The notes: generated by a model not told the origin, from the sequence alone. DNA of 64,000 nucleotides from an uncultured Actinomycetota bacterium (GCA_963770565.1 CAVYQE010000011.1:512001-576000), one strand, 5' to 3'. Counted from the stretch's first letter, positions 21,080-30,243 are shown. Made by a program: numbers and translations.

Positions 21080-21191
21080 GGGGTCCTGAGCTCCTCGTGC
21101 AGTGGGCGCCGCTCACGTGCGCCCGTCGTTTGACTCTCTTGAGCGTAGGCGGCGCTGGCTCGGCGCTGATCTTCGCCGTACCCTGATCGTG

Positions 21192-21576
<385 letters not shown>

Positions 21577-21620
21577 TTCTAGGCCTGTGACCTGGGGTTT
21601 TACCTGGACCAAGATCGCTA

Positions 21621-21639
21621 AGTCCGCGAATAGTCCGCG
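21621..21639 (+). repeat. Putative integrase arm-type sites (AGTCCGCG x2, 11-bp spacing)
   Basis: agtccgcg at 21621 and 21632; same motif clustered near the other att site. Confidence 0.7.
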
Positions 21640-21656
21640 GGAACTTCGGAGAGAGT

Positions 21657-22734
21657 TCAGTCGGTCGCTCGGAGCGCCGCGTCCAGAACGCCGCGGCCCT
21701 CTTCCTCACTCGCGGGGAACAGGTGCCCGTAGGTGTCGAGGGTCTCGACGATGGAGGCGTGGCCGAGTCTGTCCTGGATGGTCTTGGGGTGCAAGTTGGC
21801 TGCGATCAGGGCTGACGCGTAGAAGTGGCGCAGGTCGTGGAACCGGGTGCCGGTCGGTAGCCCGGCGGTCTCGACGGCGGCGCGCCATCGGTCGCCGAAT
21901 GATGAGCGACGCACTGGGCCTTTCAGACGGTTGGTGATGAGCAAGCCGCTGTCGCCGGTCGGCCAGTCGCGAAGGTGCTGGGCGATCGCGTCGAGCAGTC
22001 CGTCGTCGGTCGGCACGGTGCGCCGCGACGCCCGGGTCTTGAGTGGCGCGAGGTGCGGGATATCACCGTTGCCGGTGAGCTGCTCCTCGACGTAGATACG
22101 CCGGCGCTCGAAGTCGACCCGGCTGGTCAGCAGACCGAGCGCCTCGCCCTGGCGCAGACCTGCGGCTGCGCCTAGCAGGACCGCGATTGCATATCGAGGC
22201 GTGATGGCGCTCGTCGAGGGCAAGAACCGCGTGCGGTGCCAGCGGCTCGACGACACGGGGCTCGACGCGGGGGAGCGGTACTCGCGAGCAGGGGTTCGCG
22301 GCGATCAGGTCATCGTCGACCGCCGACTGCATGATCGAGCGAAGCACTGCGTACGCGGTCTGCGTGGTGCTTGGCGCGAGACGGCTCGAGAGCTCGGCGA
22401 CGACCGCTTTCATGTCGGGGCGGCGTAGCGATGCGAGGGTGCGCCGGCCGATCAGCGGAAGGATGTGCGTGCGTAGGTGTGCGCGGTAGAGGTACTGGGA
22501 GTTGGGTCGCAGGTGGACCTGCGCCGGCAGCCACCGCTGCTCGACGTAGTCAGCGAGAGCGATGCGACCGGCGCTCGGGTCGACGTAGGTGCCGGTGACG
22601 AGGCCGGTCGTCATCTCGTCGAGCCAGCGTTGTGCGGCGGCCTTGCGGTCGAAGTGGCGGGCTCGCTCTCGACCTGATGGGTCGTGATAGCGGGCTCGCC
22701 AGTGGCCGTCCGGTCGTCGCTGAATGCTGGCCAA
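21657..22734 (-). pseudogene. Tyrosine integrase, frameshifted near 22210
   Basis: N-terminal part MASIQRRPDGHWRARY..YVDPSAGR in one frame; catalytic part GLRQGE..LKT..FHDLRHFYAS..LGH..TLDTYGH in another; removing one base rejoins them; RBS GGAGGT before TTG. Confidence 0.85.
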
Positions 22735-22857
22735 GCCCTACCTCCGTCGAGGCGCGCACGCTAGCGACGGGTGCGCTGTCTTTGTGCTGGAGTCGAGCAA
22801 CATGTGGATGAGCCCAGGAAGTTGTGGATAGTCGGTCTGACGCCGCGACAGCGGGAG

Positions 22858-23040
22858 TCAGGCGCCCCCGGCCGGTGTGACCCGTCCCGCGGTGATGAAG
22901 GCCTCCAGGTCGGCGGTGTCGATGCGGACGTGGCTGCCGAGCTTGACGTAGGGGATTCGTCGCTCGGCGATCAGTCGGCGGATGAAGCGGGTCTTGGTCG
23001 CGAGACGCTCGGCGGCCTGGTCGACGGTCAGCAGGGTCAT
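22858..23040 (-). CDS. Excisionase family HTH protein
   Basis: LLTVDQAAERLA..RFIRRLIAERRIPYVKLGSHVRI; RBS GAAGGAG. Confidence 0.9.
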   Translation of the reverse strand: MTLLTVDQAAERLATKTRFIRRLIAERRIPYVKLGSHVRIDTADLEAFITAGRVTPAGGA

Positions 23041-23087
23041 GGCGTGCTCCTTCAGGTTGTGACGGTGAGAACACGGTTAGTGCGGGG

Positions 23088-23370
23088 CGTCCCCACGAAC
23101 GTCCCCGCGAACGTCCCCACCGCAGGTCAGGACGCTGCGGTGAGGCGTCTCGACCGGGGTCGGAGCGGTGGACATGAAGGCGAGCATGCGCGTGAGGCGT
23201 ACCGCTGGGCGTACCGGTTGCCGTACCGCCCGGCGTACCGGTTGGTGTGTTTTCAGCGGGCGGCAAGTGCTCATGCGGCAGCGTGCACTCGGGGTGTACC
23301 CCCGGACGTACCCCGAGGTCCGCTGATCAGGTGGGGGTACGTCTGGGGGTACGCCTGGGGGTACGCCTGG
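23088..23370. repeat. Four blocks of 12-bp-period repeats upstream of the excisionase
   Basis: CGTCCCC at 23088/23100/23112; CGTACCG at 23198/23210/23222/23234; GTACCCC at 23296/23308; inverted GGGGGTACG at 23333/23345/23357. Confidence 0.85.
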
Positions 23371-23437
23371 TGATTGTGACTAAGCAGCCCGACTGAGTAT
23401 GGTGGTCAGCGACGCCGCGCGGCCCTACGCTGGTTGT

Positions 23438-23668
23438 GTGCTCTTCGACCGCATCACCATCGAGCCCGACCTCATGGCCGGGCAGCCCTGCATACGCGGG
23501 CTGCGGATCCCGGTCGCGACCGTCGTCGCGATGGTCGCCGACGGCATGACGGTCGAGGAGATCCTCACCGACCTTCCCGAGCTCGAAGCCGAGGACATCG
23601 CGCAGGCGCTTCGCTACGCCGCGGCCGCCGTCCGGGAGCGCGAGCTGCCCTTGCGTCACCCGGCGTGA
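23438..23668 (+). CDS. DUF433 antitoxin (VapB45-like)
   Basis: RITIEPDLMAGQPCIRGLRIPV..GMTVEEILTDLPELEAEDIAQALRYAA; TACGCT 6 nt before GTG suggests a leaderless transcript. Confidence 0.9.
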   Translation: MLFDRITIEPDLMAGQPCIRGLRIPVATVVAMVADGMTVEEILTDLPELEAEDIAQALRYAAAAVRERELPLRHPA

Positions 23669-24033
23669 GGTTCCTGGTCGATGCAAACCTCTCGCCGCGG
23701 CTAGCCGCGAGCCTTGCTCACGCCGGGCACGACGCCGTCCATGTGTCCGATGTAGGGATGAGCCGCGCGACCGACACCGAGATCCTGGACATGGCCGACG
23801 GACAGGACCGGGTGGTCGTCTCGGCCGACACCGACTTCGGCACCCTGCTCGCGGTCAGCAACCGACGCGGGCCGTCGGTGCTGCTCGTCCGGTTCACCAG
23901 CCCGCGGCGCGTGGAGCAGGTCGCGTCGGTGGTTCATGTGAACCTGCCGGCCGTCGCCGAATCGCTCGAGGCGGGTGCGGTTGTGGTGCTGGAGGATGAC
24001 CGGGTCAGGATTCGCTCGCTGCCGATGCGGTAG
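23665..24033 (+). CDS. DUF5615 PIN-like toxin (VapC45-like)
   Basis: RFLVDANLSP..GHDAVHV..ATDTEI..RVVVSADTDFG; GTGA overlap with DUF433. Confidence 0.9.
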   Translation: MRFLVDANLSPRLAASLAHAGHDAVHVSDVGMSRATDTEILDMADGQDRVVVSADTDFGTLLAVSNRRGPSVLLVRFTSPRRVEQVASVVHVNLPAVAESLEAGAVVVLEDDRVRIRSLPMR

Positions 24034-24226
24034 CCGGCCTCGACACGCCCGACCCCGTGCAAATTTCTCAACTTTCTTCTCATCTCAACTTCGACTCACT
24101 GTCACACTCCGCCTTTTTCCTCTACTTCCCAACGCTTTCCGCCACTTCCACCCTTCGATCTACCGCTCGTCTGACCGTCCCACGGCACCGGCAGACATGT
24201 GCATTTCCAATGCGTACGGTCACCGC

Positions 24227-26995
24227 ATGTTGTCGACCTCGAAGATCGGAACCGCGTCCTGGCGGTACTACTCCAACCAGGTGCAGCGCGGTGTGTGCGA
24301 GTACTACCTGGGTGTCGGGGAGGCCCCTGGCCGCTGGCAGGGCCGCGGCGTCGAAGCCCTCGGGCTAGAACCGAGAGCCGTTGTCGGCGAGCGGGAGCTG
24401 GAGGCGCTGTTCGGTCGCGCGCTGCACCCCACGACCCGTCAGCGACTGGGTAGGGCGTGGCGCGCGGACGGGGTGACTGGCTATGACTTGTGTTTCTCGG
24501 CGCCGAAGTCGGTCAGCGCGTTGTGGGCGGTCGGTGAGGGCAGTGTCCCGGGTGAGGTGATGGCGGCGCACCGCGCTGCGGTGGCCACCGCGCTGGACTA
24601 CTTGGACAGCCATGCGTCGTTCTCTCGGGTCGGCACGAACGGGCACACCCAGGTCGGCACGGACGGGTTCGCCGCCGCGGTGTTTCCGCATCGCACCAGC
24701 CGGGCGGGGGACCCGCAGCTGCACTCCCACGCGCTGGTAGTGAACAAGCTCCGCTGCCCAGACGGCGGCTGGCGCACGATCGACGGGCACGAGATCTACG
24801 CGCACAAGAAGTCCGCGGGGACGGTGTATCAGGCCGCGTTGCGCAACGAGCTGACCGGCCGGCTCAACGTGTCATGGACACCGGTGTCGAAGGACGGTCA
24901 GGCGGAGATCGCCGGCGTCCCCACTGCGCTGATGAAGGCCTGGTCGAAACGGGCCGTGCAGGTGACCGGTGAGGCCGCCCCGGTGATCGACGCCTACGAG
25001 CAAGAGCTCGGGCGGCCGCTGTCCTCAGCGGAACGCACCGCGGTGCTGAAGGTCGCGGTGCTGAAGACTCGGCCGGGGAAGGACCCGGTCGACGTCGTCG
25101 CGCTCTCCGACCGGTGGACAGCAGAAGCCGCCGAGCTGGGGTGGGACGGGCACGGCGTGCAACGGGAGATCGGCAGGGCGAGCCAGCCGCTACCGGGATC
25201 CGCTGAGCTGGCCGCCGAGATGGACCGAGCGGTCCTCGAGGCGGTCGGGGCGGCCGGGGCGCGGCGGGCGGTGTTCACCCGGTCCGATCTGGTGGCGGAG
25301 GTCGCGACCCGGCTGCCGAACGGCGGGTTCGACGCGAGCCTCGTCCGCACGCTGGTCGAGCAACTCACCGATCACGCCGTCGGCACGCCCGATACCGTCA
25401 CGTTGCGCCCTCAGGTCGACGGATGTCGCCGTGGCTCCGACGCCCGCTATGCCTCCCGGGCAACGGTGGATGCGGAGCTGCGGGTCCTCGGCGTCACTTC
25501 TGGCGGCCGGGCGGCGGGTCTCGCGGCGCTCGACCCGGCCCAGGTCCGGCAGGTCGCGAAGCGCCACGGATTGGACGGGTCGCAGCAGGCAGCACTCGTC
25601 CAGGTCGCCGGGAGCGGTGACGCGGTCTCGGTGCTGGTCGCCCCGGCCGGGACCGGGAAGACCACCGCGCTGGGCGCGGCGGTCGAGGCGTGGCAGGCCG
25701 ACGGTTACCGCATTGTGGGGCTCGCACCGTCGGCCCGCGCCGCCGCCGAACTCCGCGACGCCACTGGCACTGCTGCGGACACCGTCGCGAAGTTCCTCCA
25801 CGAACACGACAAGCCGACCCGGCGAGGCGGACGCTGGGACATCGACCCGTACCGGCTCAACGCCGGGGTCGTGATGATCGTCGACGAAGCCTCCATGCTC
25901 GCTACCGCCGAACTTGACCGGCTGACCCAGGCGACGGGGGCGGCCGGCGCGAAGCTGCTGCTGGTCGGTGACCCAGCCCAGATCGGTGCCGTCGACGCGG
26001 CCGGCGGGATGCTCCCCGTCCTCGCCCACCGCCTCGATGCGCCGACCCTGGACACGGTGCACCGGTTCACCGAGCCCTGGGAACGGCATGCCTCCCTCCG
26101 ACTCCGGCGCGGTGACCCGACCGTCATCGACGACTACCTCGCCGCCGGCCGGGTCCACCACTGCCCAGATGAGTCCGCGGCCTATCAGGCAGTCCTCGCC
26201 GCTTACCTCGACGCGAGCACGGCAGGACGCAGGGTGTTGATGCTCGCCCGGACCCACCACGACGTCGACACCCTGAACACCCTCGCCCGCGCGCACGCGA
26301 TCGAGACCGGGCAGGTTCACGGACCGGTCCTGCTCGACGGGCCAGTCGAGTGGCGGGCCGGGGACCGGCTCCGCGCCACCCGCAACAACCGCACGATCAG
26401 CGTCGGCGCCGACTACCTGCGCAACGGTGAACGGTTCACCGTGCTCGGGGCTGACCGTCACGGACTGCACGTCCTAACCGTTGACGGCGGCCAGACCGCG
26501 CGACTCCCCGCCGAGTACGTGGCCGCACACAGCACCTACGGGTGGGCGACGACGATCGACGCCGCGCAAGGCGCCACCGTCGACCATGCGATCCTGCTCG
26601 CCCGACCCGGCATCGACCGCGAACACCTCTACGTCGGGCTCACCCGCGGCCGAAACGCCAACCACGTGATCGTCGCCCAGCCCACCAGCGACGTCGATCA
26701 CCACGGCCTGCCGAAAGCAGGGGTGCCTCGGGCGGCTCGGGAAGTCCTTGCTGACGCACTCAGTGGCAGCGGCGTCCAGCAAGCCGCCCACACCCGGCTC
26801 CCCGAGCACCAACAAGTCGAGCCGGCCGCAAAGCCAACAACAGCTCGGCCCATCGTTCGGCGGCCAAGACCGGCACGAGTGCCGCTCCGCCGGATCGAAC
26901 GGCCCCAGCGCACCATGGAACCCGACCACCACTACCGCGGCCTCACACACGACCACGGGCTCGACCAAGGACGCGACATGGGCCGCGGACGATAA
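24227..26995 (+). CDS. MobF (TrwC-like) relaxase with RecD-like helicase domain
   Basis: N-terminal YY..YY, YDLCFSAPKSVS, HUH motif HRTSRAGDPQLHSH, Walker A APAGTGKT, IVDEASM, VGDPAQI, AQGATVD, LYVGLTRGR. Confidence 0.93.
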   Translation: MLSTSKIGTASWRYYSNQVQRGVCEYYLGVGEAPGRWQGRGVEALGLEPRAVVGERELEALFGRALHPTTRQRLGRAWRADGVTGYDLCFSAPKSVSALWAVGEGSVPGEVMAAHRAAVATALDYLDSHASFSRVGTNGHTQVGTDGFAAAVFPHRTSRAGDPQLHSHALVVNKLRCPDGGWRTIDGHEIYAHKKSAGTVYQAALRNELTGRLNVSWTPVSKDGQAEIAGVPTALMKAWSKRAVQVTGEAAPVIDAYEQELGRPLSSAERTAVLKVAVLKTRPGKDPVDVVALSDRWTAEAAELGWDGHGVQREIGRASQPLPGSAELAAEMDRAVLEAVGAAGARRAVFTRSDLVAEVATRLPNGGFDASLVRTLVEQLTDHAVGTPDTVTLRPQVDGCRRGSDARYASRATVDAELRVLGVTSGGRAAGLAALDPAQVRQVAKRHGLDGSQQAALVQVAGSGDAVSVLVAPAGTGKTTALGAAVEAWQADGYRIVGLAPSARAAAELRDATGTAADTVAKFLHEHDKPTRRGGRWDIDPYRLNAGVVMIVDEASMLATAELDRLTQATGAAGAKLLLVGDPAQIGAVDAAGGMLPVLAHRLDAPTLDTVHRFTEPWERHASLRLRRGDPTVIDDYLAAGRVHHCPDESAAYQAVLAAYLDASTAGRRVLMLARTHHDVDTLNTLARAHAIETGQVHGPVLLDGPVEWRAGDRLRATRNNRTISVGADYLRNGERFTVLGADRHGLHVLTVDGGQTARLPAEYVAAHSTYGWATTIDAAQGATVDHAILLARPGIDREHLYVGLTRGRNANHVIVAQPTSDVDHHGLPKAGVPRAAREVLADALSGSGVQQAAHTRLPEHQQVEPAAKPTTARPIVRRPRPARVPLRRIERPQRTMEPDHHYRGLTHDHGLDQGRDMGRGR

Positions 26996-27080
26996 CAACG
27001 ACCTATTCGACGGCCCGGGACACACACGAATCGCTCCGAGCCGGCGCTATCGCTCGCATGATTACTGACACGATGCAAAC

Positions 27081-27458
27081 ATGCCGATGATGGCGGTCAC
27101 GTCCTCAACAGCCGGTCGGCGGCATGTAGCCGATCCTTCAGCCGCGGATGTTGTGGCTGCTATCCGGGCGCTCGACGGAGAGGGTGAGGTTGAACTCGAT
27201 GCACCCGGTCATGGCTGGCTCGGCGTGGCGGGAGGGCCGGACAAGTACTTCCTCGGCTACTGCCGGGAGGGCGATGGCGCGATCTTGCAAGCTCGTGCCG
27301 TGGAGTCGGTCGGCGGCACCGTCGAGATGGTGATCGGAGGCCAACCCACCTCAATCGAAGCCGAGTACACGGTCACTCTGGATGCGGCAACGGCGGCCGT
27401 CCTGCACTTCTTGGAGACAGGTGAGGCCGACCCCGCCATCGGCTGGGAGCAGATGTAG
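27081..27458 (+). CDS. Imm1-like immunity protein
   Basis: C-terminal VTLDAATAAVLHFLETGEADPAIGWE resembles the Imm1 A..F..TG.P...W signature. Confidence 0.55.
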   Translation: MPMMAVTSSTAGRRHVADPSAADVVAAIRALDGEGEVELDAPGHGWLGVAGGPDKYFLGYCREGDGAILQARAVESVGGTVEMVIGGQPTSIEAEYTVTLDAATAAVLHFLETGEADPAIGWEQM

Positions 27459-27656
27459 AGGTGCGATAGGGAACGACGCACTCTGTCCGGCCTACCGACG
27501 CGAGGCGTCCGATCCTCGCCGGCGCTATTCGACGCGGCGTTGCGAGATCATCCCCCTTCAGCGGATGGATGATCCGTCGCGGCATGAAGGGACGGCGTAC
27601 CGTTCGGGGTTCGGAGCCGGTGGCTCAGATATCGCTGGAGTGTGAGGAGACTGGGC

Positions 27657-28172
27657 ATGTCAGCAGATGACGCAGACGAAGCGGATGACGAAATCCTGCG
27701 TGGCTTCCTCAGAGCCCAGCGCGAATCGGTATTGGCAATCGTCGAGGGGCTCGGCGAGGACGCGTGGCACCGGTCAGTCGTACCCACCGGCTGGACGCCG
27801 GCTGGGTTAGTGGAACACCTGGGCGGCGCCGAATGGCACTGGTTTCAGGGCGTCGTAGCGGGCAAGCAGCCGGAGTTGCCGGGCGACGTCGAGGAGGATC
27901 AGGTGCCTTACGACCCCATGTCGGTGGTGTTCACCTCAGACGCGTCCCCCGCGGAGATCACTACCTTCTACCGCGACCAGTGCGCGCAGTCGGAGGATGT
28001 GCTGGCGACCACAGCACTGTCGGCGTCGCCACTCGGTAAGCATGGCCGATACGAGCCGCCAAATGTTCGTTGGGTTGTACTGCACATGATCGAGGAGACC
28101 GCACGTCATGCCGGGCATCTGGACATCGCTCGGGAGCTTCTCGACGGCACGGTTCGGCAGGGCGGCCGGTGA
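27657..28172 (+). CDS. DinB/DUF664 family protein
   Basis: LRGFLRAQRE, WTPAGLVEHL..EWHWF, VRWVVLHMIEETARHAGHLDIARELLDG. Confidence 0.85.
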   Translation: MSADDADEADDEILRGFLRAQRESVLAIVEGLGEDAWHRSVVPTGWTPAGLVEHLGGAEWHWFQGVVAGKQPELPGDVEEDQVPYDPMSVVFTSDASPAEITTFYRDQCAQSEDVLATTALSASPLGKHGRYEPPNVRWVVLHMIEETARHAGHLDIARELLDGTVRQGGR

Positions 28173-28537
28173 TGCGGCGCCTGTGTTTTCCTCCGTGAGC
28201 TCGCCGCCGTCGAGAGCAACACGCTTAAGGATCCCGGTCAAACCGTTCCCGCCGCCGCCCGGATCAGCGCAGTGCGGATCCCACCGACGACCGCTCTCAT
28301 CAACCATGGGCTGGATGGGATCGTCCCGAGTTCCGCTCGGCAGCTGATCACTGACCGTCGCTGGGAAGAGCGGTGATACCGAACAGACGTGCCGTTCTGC
28401 ATCTTTCGTGACGAGGGCGTCAATCGACCAGAACGGCATTACTTCTCGTCGTTCGGTCTACGCCGGGCGGACGGTTGGGGGATGGCGATGGGGGACCCTC
28501 CTCGGCCGGGCACGGCACCCGGCCAAGGCCGAAGCGT

Positions 28538-28852
28538 CTAGCGCGGTGCTTGCAGCACCATAAGGCGCCCCTGAGCATTCACCCCGAGCACGCCGCCGTT
28601 CCATACGCTTGGCGCGCAGGGTGCTGCGGCGTTGTGATCAAAGGTGACCGATATGACGTCCACTTTCGGTCGGCTTTCGGCGCGGTCGTAAAGCTTCACC
28701 TCGAAGGTGTGTGGTCCGGCGGTGTGGATGGTTTCGCCTAGCCGCGTGCCGGGGTTGCCGCAGTATCCAACGAAGCAAGCGACGATGTGCCCGTGTGGAT
28801 GGCTGCGCGCCCATACGTAGGTGCTGAGTACTACGCCTTGCCACGGCGCCAT
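28538..28852 (-). CDS. Hypothetical protein (element cargo)
   Basis: 104-aa ORF with GAAGGT upstream; no recognised motif. Confidence 0.3.
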   Translation of the reverse strand: MAPWQGVVLSTYVWARSHPHGHIVACFVGYCGNPGTRLGETIHTAGPHTFEVKLYDRAESRPKVDVISVTFDHNAAAPCAPSVWNGGVLGVNAQGRLMVLQAPR

Positions 28853-29080
28853 CGCACCTTCACGCCGCTGAGTCGGCGCTACAGCCCGGCATCAACGCGA
28901 AGACCAGCCCGATAGCCGCGAAGCCATACAACGGAGATCGCACCTGGCAAGTTTGGCTGACCGGCTGGCCCTCGACGGTCACGATCCGGACTCATTCGGG
29001 CTCTGCGAACGGTGCGCCAGAACGGCACGTATGGATCACCTACACCACGCGAGGGCGGCCCACTACGAACGCTCGTGCTC

Positions 29081-29557
29081 CTACGGCGGCGGGGCCACAT
29101 TTAGGCGCGCAGTCGCGAGCGTCGCCAAGCCGCCAACGCAGGGCACGTTCTTCTTCGGGCGCGCGTTGTCGCACATCGCGTAGTTGATGGGAACACTGAC
29201 GCGGCCTGGGCGGGTCAGGAGCCAGCCATGATCCTGTCGCCGAAGAGGCGCACCAGCAGCCTTGTTGGCCAGCTGAAATATGTGAGGACAGCCCGACCGA
29301 CTGACGACGCGCACGACGTCGCCAACTTGCGCGTGGAGTTGCACGTCGCCGGTAACCGGCGTTGCGGCGCGATTGATGAGGAGTCGTGCGGTCGTACCTC
29401 GGCAAGGCCCAGGGCCGAGGGCGAGGGCAAGAGGCAATGCAGGGCGCGGGACCGGAGTAAACGTCACAGGACGAGTGACGCTGGGCGACGACGCTGCACC
29501 ACTACACGCGGCGACGAGAAGCGTGAGCGAAAGGCCCGCAAAGACGCGCACTCTCAT
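29081..29557 (-). CDS. Putative lipoprotein (element cargo)
   Basis: Signal peptide MRVRVFAGLSLTLLVAAC with lipobox; four further Cys. Confidence 0.55.
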   Translation of the reverse strand: MRVRVFAGLSLTLLVAACSGAASSPSVTRPVTFTPVPRPALPLALALGPGPCRGTTARLLINRAATPVTGDVQLHAQVGDVVRVVSRSGCPHIFQLANKAAGAPLRRQDHGWLLTRPGRVSVPINYAMCDNARPKKNVPCVGGLATLATARLNVAPPP

Positions 29558-29719
29558 GCCCGTAAGACTCGCACGCAGCAACATCGGTTCCAAGGGACTT
29601 GATGATGACCAGGTGCCTCCGGGCCGACGCAAGAGAAGGTAACGCCGGTTAAGGTCGGCGAGCAGAAAGGCCAAATCGCGAATGCGGAACCTACAGACCA
29701 ACTCGATGATCCGCGCGAA

Positions 29720-29857
29720 AGTCCGCGAGGTCGGAGACAATCTGTACTTAGCCGCACCTCGCACAGGCGGCCTGTAGGAAATCAACTGGCGGCTCGGCGG
29801 TCCCGCGAGTCCGCGACAAGTCCGCGACAATTTCAGCAGTCCGCCGAAAGTCCGCGA
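29720..29857 (+). repeat. Putative integrase arm-type sites (AGTCCGC[G] x5)
   Basis: Copies at 29720, 29808, 29819, 29838 and 29849, including two pairs spaced 11 bp. Confidence 0.7.
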
Positions 29858-29966
29858 AAAACCGGACATTCCCGGCAGCCGACGGTCACTGGCGGTCAAG
29901 GTGTTGCCGCAGGTCGGGCCCGTAATTCGAGGAAAATGCCTGGTCAGCCAATCGCTCCGGAGGCAT

Positions 29967-29992
29967 CCCGGCTTACAGGCCAACTCGTCCGC
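29967..29992 (+). repeat. att core, distal copy (displaced original rnpB 3' end)
   Basis: Identical 26-mer; continues CAC to give 17/17 complementarity to the rnpB 5' strand at 21189-21205. Confidence 0.92.
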
Positions 29993-30243
29993 CACCCGAG
30001 CCCCCGACTAGCGTCTTCGCAGCATGCGACTAGGCAACGACGAGCGAGGAGCAGGCTTCACCCATCGTCTTCGCGCGGTGCCGCGATCCCGGGCGTCCAG
30101 CAGGTTATCGGTGTCGCTGAGTCGCCGTGCCACGTTGGAGATTCTCTTTTTGGCCTGCGAAGACCTGCGAAGCCGACGAGGATAGCCGCGTGGGAGCCCG
30201 TCCGCCCAGGCTCCCGCAGATCGAGTGCGGACAAGGAGTCGCC

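Follow-up and report, generated by a model that had tools for sequence, protein, structure and literature searches.

The window analysed in this study is a 64,000-nucleotide (64-kb) stretch from an uncultured Actinomycetota bacterium (GCA_963770565.1, CAVYQE010000011.1:512001-576000), in which rnpB, the gene for RNase P RNA, is followed by an apparent integrated element that ends in a second copy of the rnpB 3' end. The rnpB gene is located at 21197-21575 on the + strand and belongs to the bacterial type A; it matched Rfam RF00010 over the full length of the model (positions 1-367 of 367) with 316.3 bits and an E value of 1e-102. A search with a profile from actinobacterial rnpB genes found it to be the single rnpB of the genome. 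Two exact copies of the 26-mer CCCGGCTTACAGGCCAACTCGTCCGC were present in the window, one at 21551-21576 and one at 29967-29992, in each case on the + strand. Given that full-length rnpB was matched at 21197-21575, the proximal copy is the 3' end of the gene, of which it forms the last 25-26 nt. It is referred to here as the core of the left attachment site (attL). The distal copy, an exact repeat that continues with CAC at 29993-29995, is referred to as the core of the right attachment site (attR). The element measures 8,416 bp from core start to core start. None of 100 shuffled sequences matched CCCGGCTTACAGGCCAACTCGTCCGC with up to 2 mismatches allowed, and the window likewise contained no further copy at this threshold. 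In the whole genome (4,428,154 bases in 11 contigs), CCCGGCTTACAGGCCAACTCGTCCGC was found only at the same two places with up to 4 mismatches allowed. No tRNA or tmRNA gene was found in the 64-kb window. The core stretch covers what we take to be the 3' strands of helices P4, P2, and P1, the names being those of the Escherichia coli M1 RNA model. A direct repeat of the rnpB 3' end is thus present at both borders, and rnpB itself is left intact.

The two copies differ in how they pair with the 5' strand of rnpB. The distal copy together with its CAC, GCCAACTCGTCCGCCAC (29979-29995), is the exact reverse complement of 21189-21205 (17/17), whereas the proximal copy continues with TTC, which leaves 14 Watson-Crick pairs with the same 5' strand. 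In the uninterrupted rnpB genes of two relatives, G001 and G014, P1 is longer by three pairs, GCG/CGC; in that of G017, just one extra P1 pair was counted. The 5' side of rnpB in the window reads GUG, and only the distal copy supplies the CAC that matches it, a compensated change in the P1 extension. As judged from the pairing, CAC at 29993-29995 is probably the displaced native end of rnpB. The flanks were also compared. The 70 nt past the proximal copy aligned with the 70 nt past rnpB in G025 and G018 (local z of 22 and 20 against shuffles, respectively), and each of these two genomes has a related integrase after rnpB that is 71-74% identical to that of the window. No alignment was found between the 70 nt past the proximal copy and any of 10 uninterrupted relatives, and the flank of the distal copy showed no homology to the G025 and G018 flanks after rnpB. 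G025 has a stump of its own, located on a different contig, and its repeat is 30 nt or longer. Because of the flank homology and the P1 extension, the distal copy is read as the displaced chromosomal end and the proximal copy as the one brought by the element; the attL core from the crossover point onward would accordingly be element-supplied. The sequence-only reading, which preceded this analysis, had noted the exact recurrence of the 26 nt and the contrast between 17 and 14 pairs, and had taken the proximal copy to be element-supplied. The first two statements were confirmed from the sequence, and the third agrees with both the G025/G018 flank homology and the GUG/CAC extension of P1.

The gene next to the attL core, at a distance of 80 nt, encodes a tyrosine integrase (21657-22734, - strand) that is convergent with rnpB. 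PF00589 was matched with 81 bits on 21660-22304, and PF22022 and PF14659 were matched on 22066-22737; the catalytic domain lies within 21657-22304 and the SAM-like and central domains lie within 22063-22734. The R, K, HxxR, H, and Y motifs were visible by eye in the C-terminal frame. In this assembly, however, a single additional base near 22214 disrupts the reading frame. The intact integrase of G025 (368 amino acid residues) matched the window in two frames: its residues 1-173 were 73% identical to the translation of 22734-22216, and its residues 165-355 were 74% identical to that of the 21660-22304 frame. The switch between the frames falls in GACGAGCGCC, at about 22205-22215. Dropping one base at 22214 joins the N-terminal to the C-terminal frame and gives the same length as the G025 integrase. 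Logan contigs of four public metagenome runs were compared with the element region, and the base at 22214 was absent in all four runs (one covering contig per run); one such contig had 7 differences from the window in 398 nt. Thus, an intact integrase gene exists in close relatives, and the extra base at 22214 reflects either an assembly error or a mutation private to this genome. In addition, the attL junction is supported by an independent metagenome, in which a 918-nt contig runs from rnpB into the integrase gene. The cargo region at 27.2-29.6 kb had almost no cover in the four runs. Upstream of the integrase gene is that of an excisionase, or recombination directionality factor, of 60 residues (22858-23040, - strand; PF12728 HTH_17 48 bits; TIGR01764 'excise' 59 bits).

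The largest gene between the two cores encodes a MOBF-type relaxase with a C-terminal helicase (23975-26995, + strand; start approximate), whose frame of about 1006 codons is intact. PF08751 (TrwC) was matched with 268 bits over profile positions 6-286 of 286 and was followed by PF13604 (AAA_30, 193 bits), PF13245, and PF13538, which is the domain order of a MOBF relaxase-helicase. Searches of the open reading frames (ORFs) of the element against Pfam and NCBIfam found no coupling protein, VirB4, FtsK/SpoIIIE-type translocase, replication initiator, capsid, or terminase. Among the ORFs scanned, the element therefore has a relaxase with neither a coupling protein nor a mating channel, which agrees with how mobilizable elements are defined. 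An integrated element bounded by the duplicated rnpB 3' end had been proposed from the sequence alone, and the repeat, the full-length rnpB, and the genes between the copies all support it. The genes listed at that time are indeed found between the copies; the integrase frame, which had been counted among them, is broken in this assembly, and the frameshift, the arm-type repeats described below, and the four arrangements of integrase gene and core had all been overlooked. The accompanying suggestion that the element would need a helper, since it lacks genes of a type IV secretion system (T4SS), is reasonable, as no coupling-protein or T4SS gene was found among the ORFs scanned. The genome contains two TraG-type coupling-protein genes (TraG-D_C; G000:C2 at about 760 kb and C6 at about 186.7 kb), both beside TrwC-like relaxases, and the larger TraG-bearing elements of the genome are candidate helpers.

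To find relatives of the integrase, one genome per species (185,579 species) was scanned with an alignment of two integrases as the query. A relative was encoded in 206 stretches, and the best 80 of the 206 were analysed with up to 10 kb of flank each. The profile search found rnpB in 63 of these 80 loci, and a panel of rnpB 3' ends, used as queries for short matches, revealed an rnpB 3' fragment in 10 further loci, which brings the total to 73 of 80. The remaining seven comprised three that are beside tRNA-Lys and four with nothing recognised. The integrase relatives thus keep the same target in 73 of the 80 loci. The clade hosts included Streptosporangium, Nonomuraea, Planomonospora, Planotetraspora, Actinoplanes, Parafrankia, Frankia, Nocardioides, Microbacterium, and a Propionibacteriaceae isolate as well as many metagenome-assembled genomes (MAGs) of Acidimicrobiia and two of Dormibacterota. 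The integrase ORFs of 13 of the 80 relatives were broken, many of these being from MAGs.

The position of the integrase gene relative to rnpB varied among the 73 loci, and four layouts were distinguished. In layout A, which is that of the window, rnpB is convergent with the integrase gene at a distance of no more than 300 nt (39 loci); in four more loci of the same orientation rnpB is 1-5.6 kb away, and in one locus the 3' fragment alone follows the integrase gene. In layout B, which is mostly from Acidimicrobiia, rnpB is followed by the integrase gene in the same direction (20 loci, plus 2 with only the fragment). In layout C, the start of the integrase gene adjoins the 3' fragment at the far end (6 loci). 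Finally, in the only locus with layout D, the end of the integrase gene adjoins a co-oriented fragment and the full gene is 8.3 kb upstream. Both a full rnpB and a separate co-oriented 3' fragment were found in 18 loci, with repeats of 25-53 nt and spacings from 4.6 to about 11 kb, of which the upper bound was set by the length of flank taken. In the Planotetraspora silvatica locus (L059), a full rnpB was accompanied by two co-oriented 3' fragments, one near 1815 and one at the start of the locus, which suggests two elements in tandem at rnpB. In another genome, the MAG G015, an uninterrupted-looking rnpB was found on one contig and an integrase gene beside an rnpB 3' fragment on another (C131, C92; L017, L015/L084), and the flank of the fragment on the integrase contig resembled the flank on the rnpB contig. 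This pattern could reflect a strain mixture or an attP (the attachment site of the element) with extended homology.

A tree was inferred with a quick search in IQ-TREE and branch support from the SH-like approximate likelihood ratio test (SH-aLRT). Its 75 rows were 68 of the 80 loci, G025, the window, which was read through with X at the break, and five other integrases of this genome as the outgroup; the 12 loci left out had ORFs shorter than 300 residues. The 70 ingroup rows were split from the outgroup with 100% SH-aLRT. Together with the 73 of 80 loci, this split supports the earlier proposal of an integrase clade that is specialised for rnpB. Within the ingroup, the window, G025, and a Jatrophihabitans MAG were grouped together (99%). 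Layout B formed a clade of 12 rows (100%), and layout C also formed a clade (100%). The three integrases beside tRNA-Lys (L097, L099, and L101, from Actinocrinis and a MAG) were the most distant, with identities of 34-35%, and were convergent with tRNA-Lys. They formed one clade nested inside the ingroup, among the rnpB users, which looks like a target switch.

An empty site was found for another member of the integrase clade. In Microbacterium proteolyticum (L058, layout A), the stump is 8.9 kb from rnpB and is followed by a 515-nt spacer and a flank gene. The corresponding empty site is in G052: there the full rnpB is joined to this spacer and flank gene without interruption, with identities of 93-96%. 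The full rnpB stood immediately before the flank gene at 8 of 11 loci from relatives of M. proteolyticum, none of which contained the integrase gene. At the other three (G054, G058, and G059), the rnpB 3' end and the flank gene were 3.3-5.4 kb apart, and the retrieved loci yielded no rnpB-type integrase; the intervening sequences may be inserts of another kind, or decayed ones, that occupy this site.

Searches of phage and plasmid collections found no close relatives of the integrase, the best identities being 34% and 32%, respectively. The closest phage integrases were those of Arthrobacter phages Kukla (PQ362669.1) and TripleJ, which were 34% identical to the G025 integrase; the TripleJ integrase is near-identical to that of Kukla. 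Directly after the integrase stop codon, Kukla contains the 32-mer ACAGAACCCGGCGTATCGGTCAACCCATCCAC, which exactly matches the 3' end of a full-length rnpB, that of G029, the sole match among 401 genomes sampled from the class. By its sequence and position, this 32-mer is apparently a free attP of the same kind. Different from the element in the window, Kukla is a 46.7-kb phage and not a relaxase element, and its core is co-oriented with the integrase gene as in layout D. In the tree, its integrase fell on the ingroup side on a long branch, and the placement was unsupported. The available part of a paper naming TripleJ mentions neither attP nor rnpB.

Next to both cores are short repeats that may serve the integrase. 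The element arm at attL (the P' side, 21577-21656, + strand) contains two AGTCCGCG(A/G) units at 21621-21629 and 21632-21640 and is conserved in G025 and G018. The arm at attR (the P side, 29720-29857, + strand) contains exact AGTCCGCGA units at 29720, 29808, 29819, and 29849 and a unit with one mismatch at 29838. Exact AGTCCGCGA sites numbered five in the 64-kb window, and every one of them was located in one of the arms and on the same strand. With one mismatch allowed, AGTCCGCGA was no commoner in the window than in shuffles, and weight was therefore placed only on the exact copies and their placement. These repeats are putative arm-type integrase sites. A contig of metagenome run X1 has an additional AGTCCGCGAG and an additional AGTCCGCGACA, at 29719 and 29807, and thus the number of arm repeats differs between copies of the element.

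Taken together, these results point to an integrative mobilizable element (IME) of 8,416 bp in the 3' end of rnpB, inserted by a tyrosine integrase of an rnpB-specific clade, to which we assign a probability of about 0.9. The integrase would recombine attP, a copy of the last ~26 nt of rnpB, with the 3' end of the only rnpB of the host. After insertion, the ribozyme gene would be complete at attL because attP repeats the end of the gene, and the original end would remain as a 26-nt stump at attR. The integrase may bind the AGTCCGCGA repeats of both arms as arm-type sites, and the excisionase would direct excision. The TrwC relaxase would nick an origin of transfer (oriT), possibly in the divergent, iteron-containing intergenic region at 23088-23370, and transfer would rely on the coupling protein and mating channel of a helper. 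Given the +1 frameshift, either the copy in the window can move only with the help of an integrase supplied in trans, or the extra base arose as an error of assembly.

Several results weigh against this interpretation. The integrase frame is broken in this assembly, and no oriT was identified in the element. No relative joined rnpB to the right flank of the element, so that an empty site for this particular element was not found, and the 70 nt past attR did not resemble any of 10 native rnpB flanks (best z of 2.2). The right-flank genes were absent from the region downstream of rnpB in each of the three same-genus genomes compared. Among the contigs of the four metagenome runs, from which rare forms are dropped, no contig joined 21576 to 29993 and no circular junction was found. 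Two observations on another same-genus assembly, G003, weigh neither way: the contig with rnpB stops within the gene, 11 nt short of the core, and neither an rnpB-type integrase nor the right end was found in the 550 contigs of this assembly. The empty site is unseen because the region downstream of rnpB is non-syntenic in relatives. Comparison by tblastx showed no synteny between the 12-kb right flank and the loci of 12 relatives, nor between three same-genus downstream regions and the whole genome. In four same-genus genomes (the window and L012-L014), the upstream side of rnpB, which encodes a redoxin and a hydrolase, is syntenic and the downstream side shares no synteny. The region downstream of rnpB appears to be variable in this genus, which is consistent with a long-standing insertion hotspot.

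Of the alternatives, the one that survives best is that the element is real but dead here, an immobilised remnant whose integrase was inactivated by the frameshift. The N- and C-terminal parts of the integrase are in different frames owing to one extra base near 22214, at a site that is not a homopolymer run. Similarly, other integrase-excisionase-relaxase modules of the genome are in pieces, such as that at C1:962-968 kb, and broken integrase ORFs were also found among the 80 relatives, as noted above. However, the excisionase, the 1006-residue relaxase, the exact 26-nt repeat, and the arm repeats are all intact, many of the broken relatives are MAGs, and the lack of the extra base in all four of the other metagenomes indicates that an intact form circulates and that a single-base assembly error is possible. 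We therefore regard a dead remnant as possible but rather unlikely. A second alternative is a self-transmissible element, either an actinomycete integrative and conjugative element (AICE) of the pSAM2 or SLP1 kind or an integrative and conjugative element (ICE) with a T4SS, or else a prophage or satellite. Integrated actinobacterial elements of about 9-24 kb are commonly AICEs, and phage integrases are among the distant relatives of the integrase. An AICE would have an FtsK/SpoIIIE-like TraB and a Rep, for which no Pfam or NCBIfam match was found in the element; the ORF searches described above were likewise negative for coupling protein, VirB4, capsid, and terminase genes, and the ~1.5 kb without a recognisable gene is too little for a transfer apparatus, which makes this explanation very unlikely. 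Finally, an assembly artefact, for instance a chimeric join of a contig from a plasmid or another organism at a shared rnpB fragment, is hardly credible: the assembly does consist of multiple contigs with an estimated contamination of 3.97%, and that of the same-genus G003 breaks 11 nt before the core, but dozens of independent genomes, among them complete ones and those of cultured strains, have the same layout, the independent metagenome contig crosses the attL junction, and the GC content is continuous over both junctions (0.62-0.70).

Upstream of the relaxase gene and on the same strand are two small, adjacent genes. The first encodes a DUF433 protein, a putative antitoxin (23399-23668, + strand; PF04255 84 bits), and the second encodes a DUF5615/PIN-like protein, a putative toxin (23668-24033, + strand; start approximate; PF18480 86 bits; PF18478 PIN_10 33 bits). 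Such a DUF433/PIN-like pair is a predicted toxin-antitoxin system. Between the excisionase and DUF433 genes, the divergent intergenic region (23088-23370) contains 12-nt iterons, of which those of the GGCGTACC type are at 23196-23240 and those of the inverted GGTACGCC type are at 23332-23370. Three arrays of 12-nt repeats were identified there: CGTCCCCACGAA (2.8 copies), GGCGTACCGCTC (3.8 copies), and inverted TGGGGGTACGCC (3.2 copies). This region is a candidate operator or oriT.

Downstream of the relaxase gene are two cargo genes, which encode an Imm1-like immunity protein (27081-27458, + strand; PF14430 38 bits) and a mycothiol-S-transferase/DinB-family protein (27642-28172, + strand; PF04978 133 bits). 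They are followed by about 1.5 kb without recognisable genes (28173-29700), whose six candidate ORFs had no Pfam or NCBIfam match; the same was true for the ORFs at 27.9-30.0 kb. Part of this stretch, 29020-29656 (~640 bp), was 84% identical to G000:C2:461943-462614 on another contig, with many small indels and no codon periodicity, and it matched no Rfam family at gathering score. It is probably a non-coding repeat.

Moreover, the genome contains at least six further modules of integrase, excisionase, and TrwC genes, some of which are in pieces. Their integrases were 26-34% identical to the rnpB type, and their relaxases were up to 80% identical to that of the window. They were found in G000 at C11:309-317 kb, C2:786-792 kb, C2:882-885 kb, C1:962-968 kb, C6:71-74 kb, C6:168-172 kb, and C6:188-193 kb. 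The integrase gene of one module is about 330 nt from tRNA-Ala and tRNA-Ile genes.

Beyond this locus, we lean towards the view that rnpB, next to tRNA and tmRNA genes, constitutes a third general class of attachment site in structural RNA genes, used by an old, Actinomycetota-wide integrase family with four layouts of integrase gene and core, in which the core tracks P1 and P2 of the host and the invariant P4 serves as the anchor. If so, the rnpB-targeting family would span relaxase elements, further small islands, and one or more cultured phages. The core starts exactly at what we take to be the near-invariant P4 strand of the ribozyme, which offers a simple reason why rnpB would be a safe and widely portable landing site. 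The insertion in the window swaps the last 3 bp of the extended P1 and could alter maturation of the ribozyme 3' end. Given that the family includes cultured carriers, such as Microbacterium proteolyticum, Nocardioides speluncae, Streptosporangium, Nonomuraea, and Planotetraspora, as well as an isolated Arthrobacter phage, the claim is directly testable. The integrases of the clade could also serve as single-copy integration tools for actinobacteria.

Tyrosine integrases classically insert elements in tRNA and tmRNA genes, towards the 3' end; this is textbook knowledge on which software for finding islands is based, and Williams is reported to have described it in 2002. In the available parts of recent papers, islands, prophages, and plasmids with tyrosine integrases are likewise described as inserting in the 3' part of these genes (PMC12424338; PMC12884075). 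As far as the available text goes, Islander searches tRNA and tmRNA genes only, and the TIGER/Islander announcement classes sites as tRNA/tmRNA, protein-coding, or intergenic. Thus, rnpB sites would not be visible as such, and a large integrase family on the single-copy, essential rnpB would stay unlabelled in island surveys that are based on tRNA and tmRNA genes. A literature search, which extended to parts of the sources, found no report of rnpB as an attachment site; a listing in Mageeney et al. (2020) or the TIGER database is possible.

The element works like a tRNA-gene island with a different and so far unrecognised target. Similar to tRNA/tmRNA islands, its tyrosine integrase gene is beside the target, its attP duplicates the 3' end of a structural RNA gene, insertion leaves a rebuilt gene at attL and a stump at attR, and integrase subclades keep their target. 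Different from those islands, the target is the gene of the RNase P ribozyme, whose 3' end includes neither a tRNA-like acceptor nor a T arm. The AICEs of actinomycetes, which include pSAM2, SLP1, and pMEA300, share with the element an actinobacterial host, a tyrosine integrase with Xis, and an insertion site at the 3' end of an RNA gene. Different from AICEs, no FtsK-like TraB, Rep, or Nudix/Pif gene was found in the element, and its transfer would be relaxase-dependent. An IME, as Guedon et al. reportedly defined it in 2017, encodes a relaxase and no mating channel. Similar to IMEs, the element is small and combines an integration/excision module with a relaxase in the absence of a coupling protein and T4SS. 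Different from IMEs, however, its host is an uncultured high-GC actinobacterium, and its full-size MOBF (TrwC) relaxase-helicase is more typical of large conjugative plasmids.

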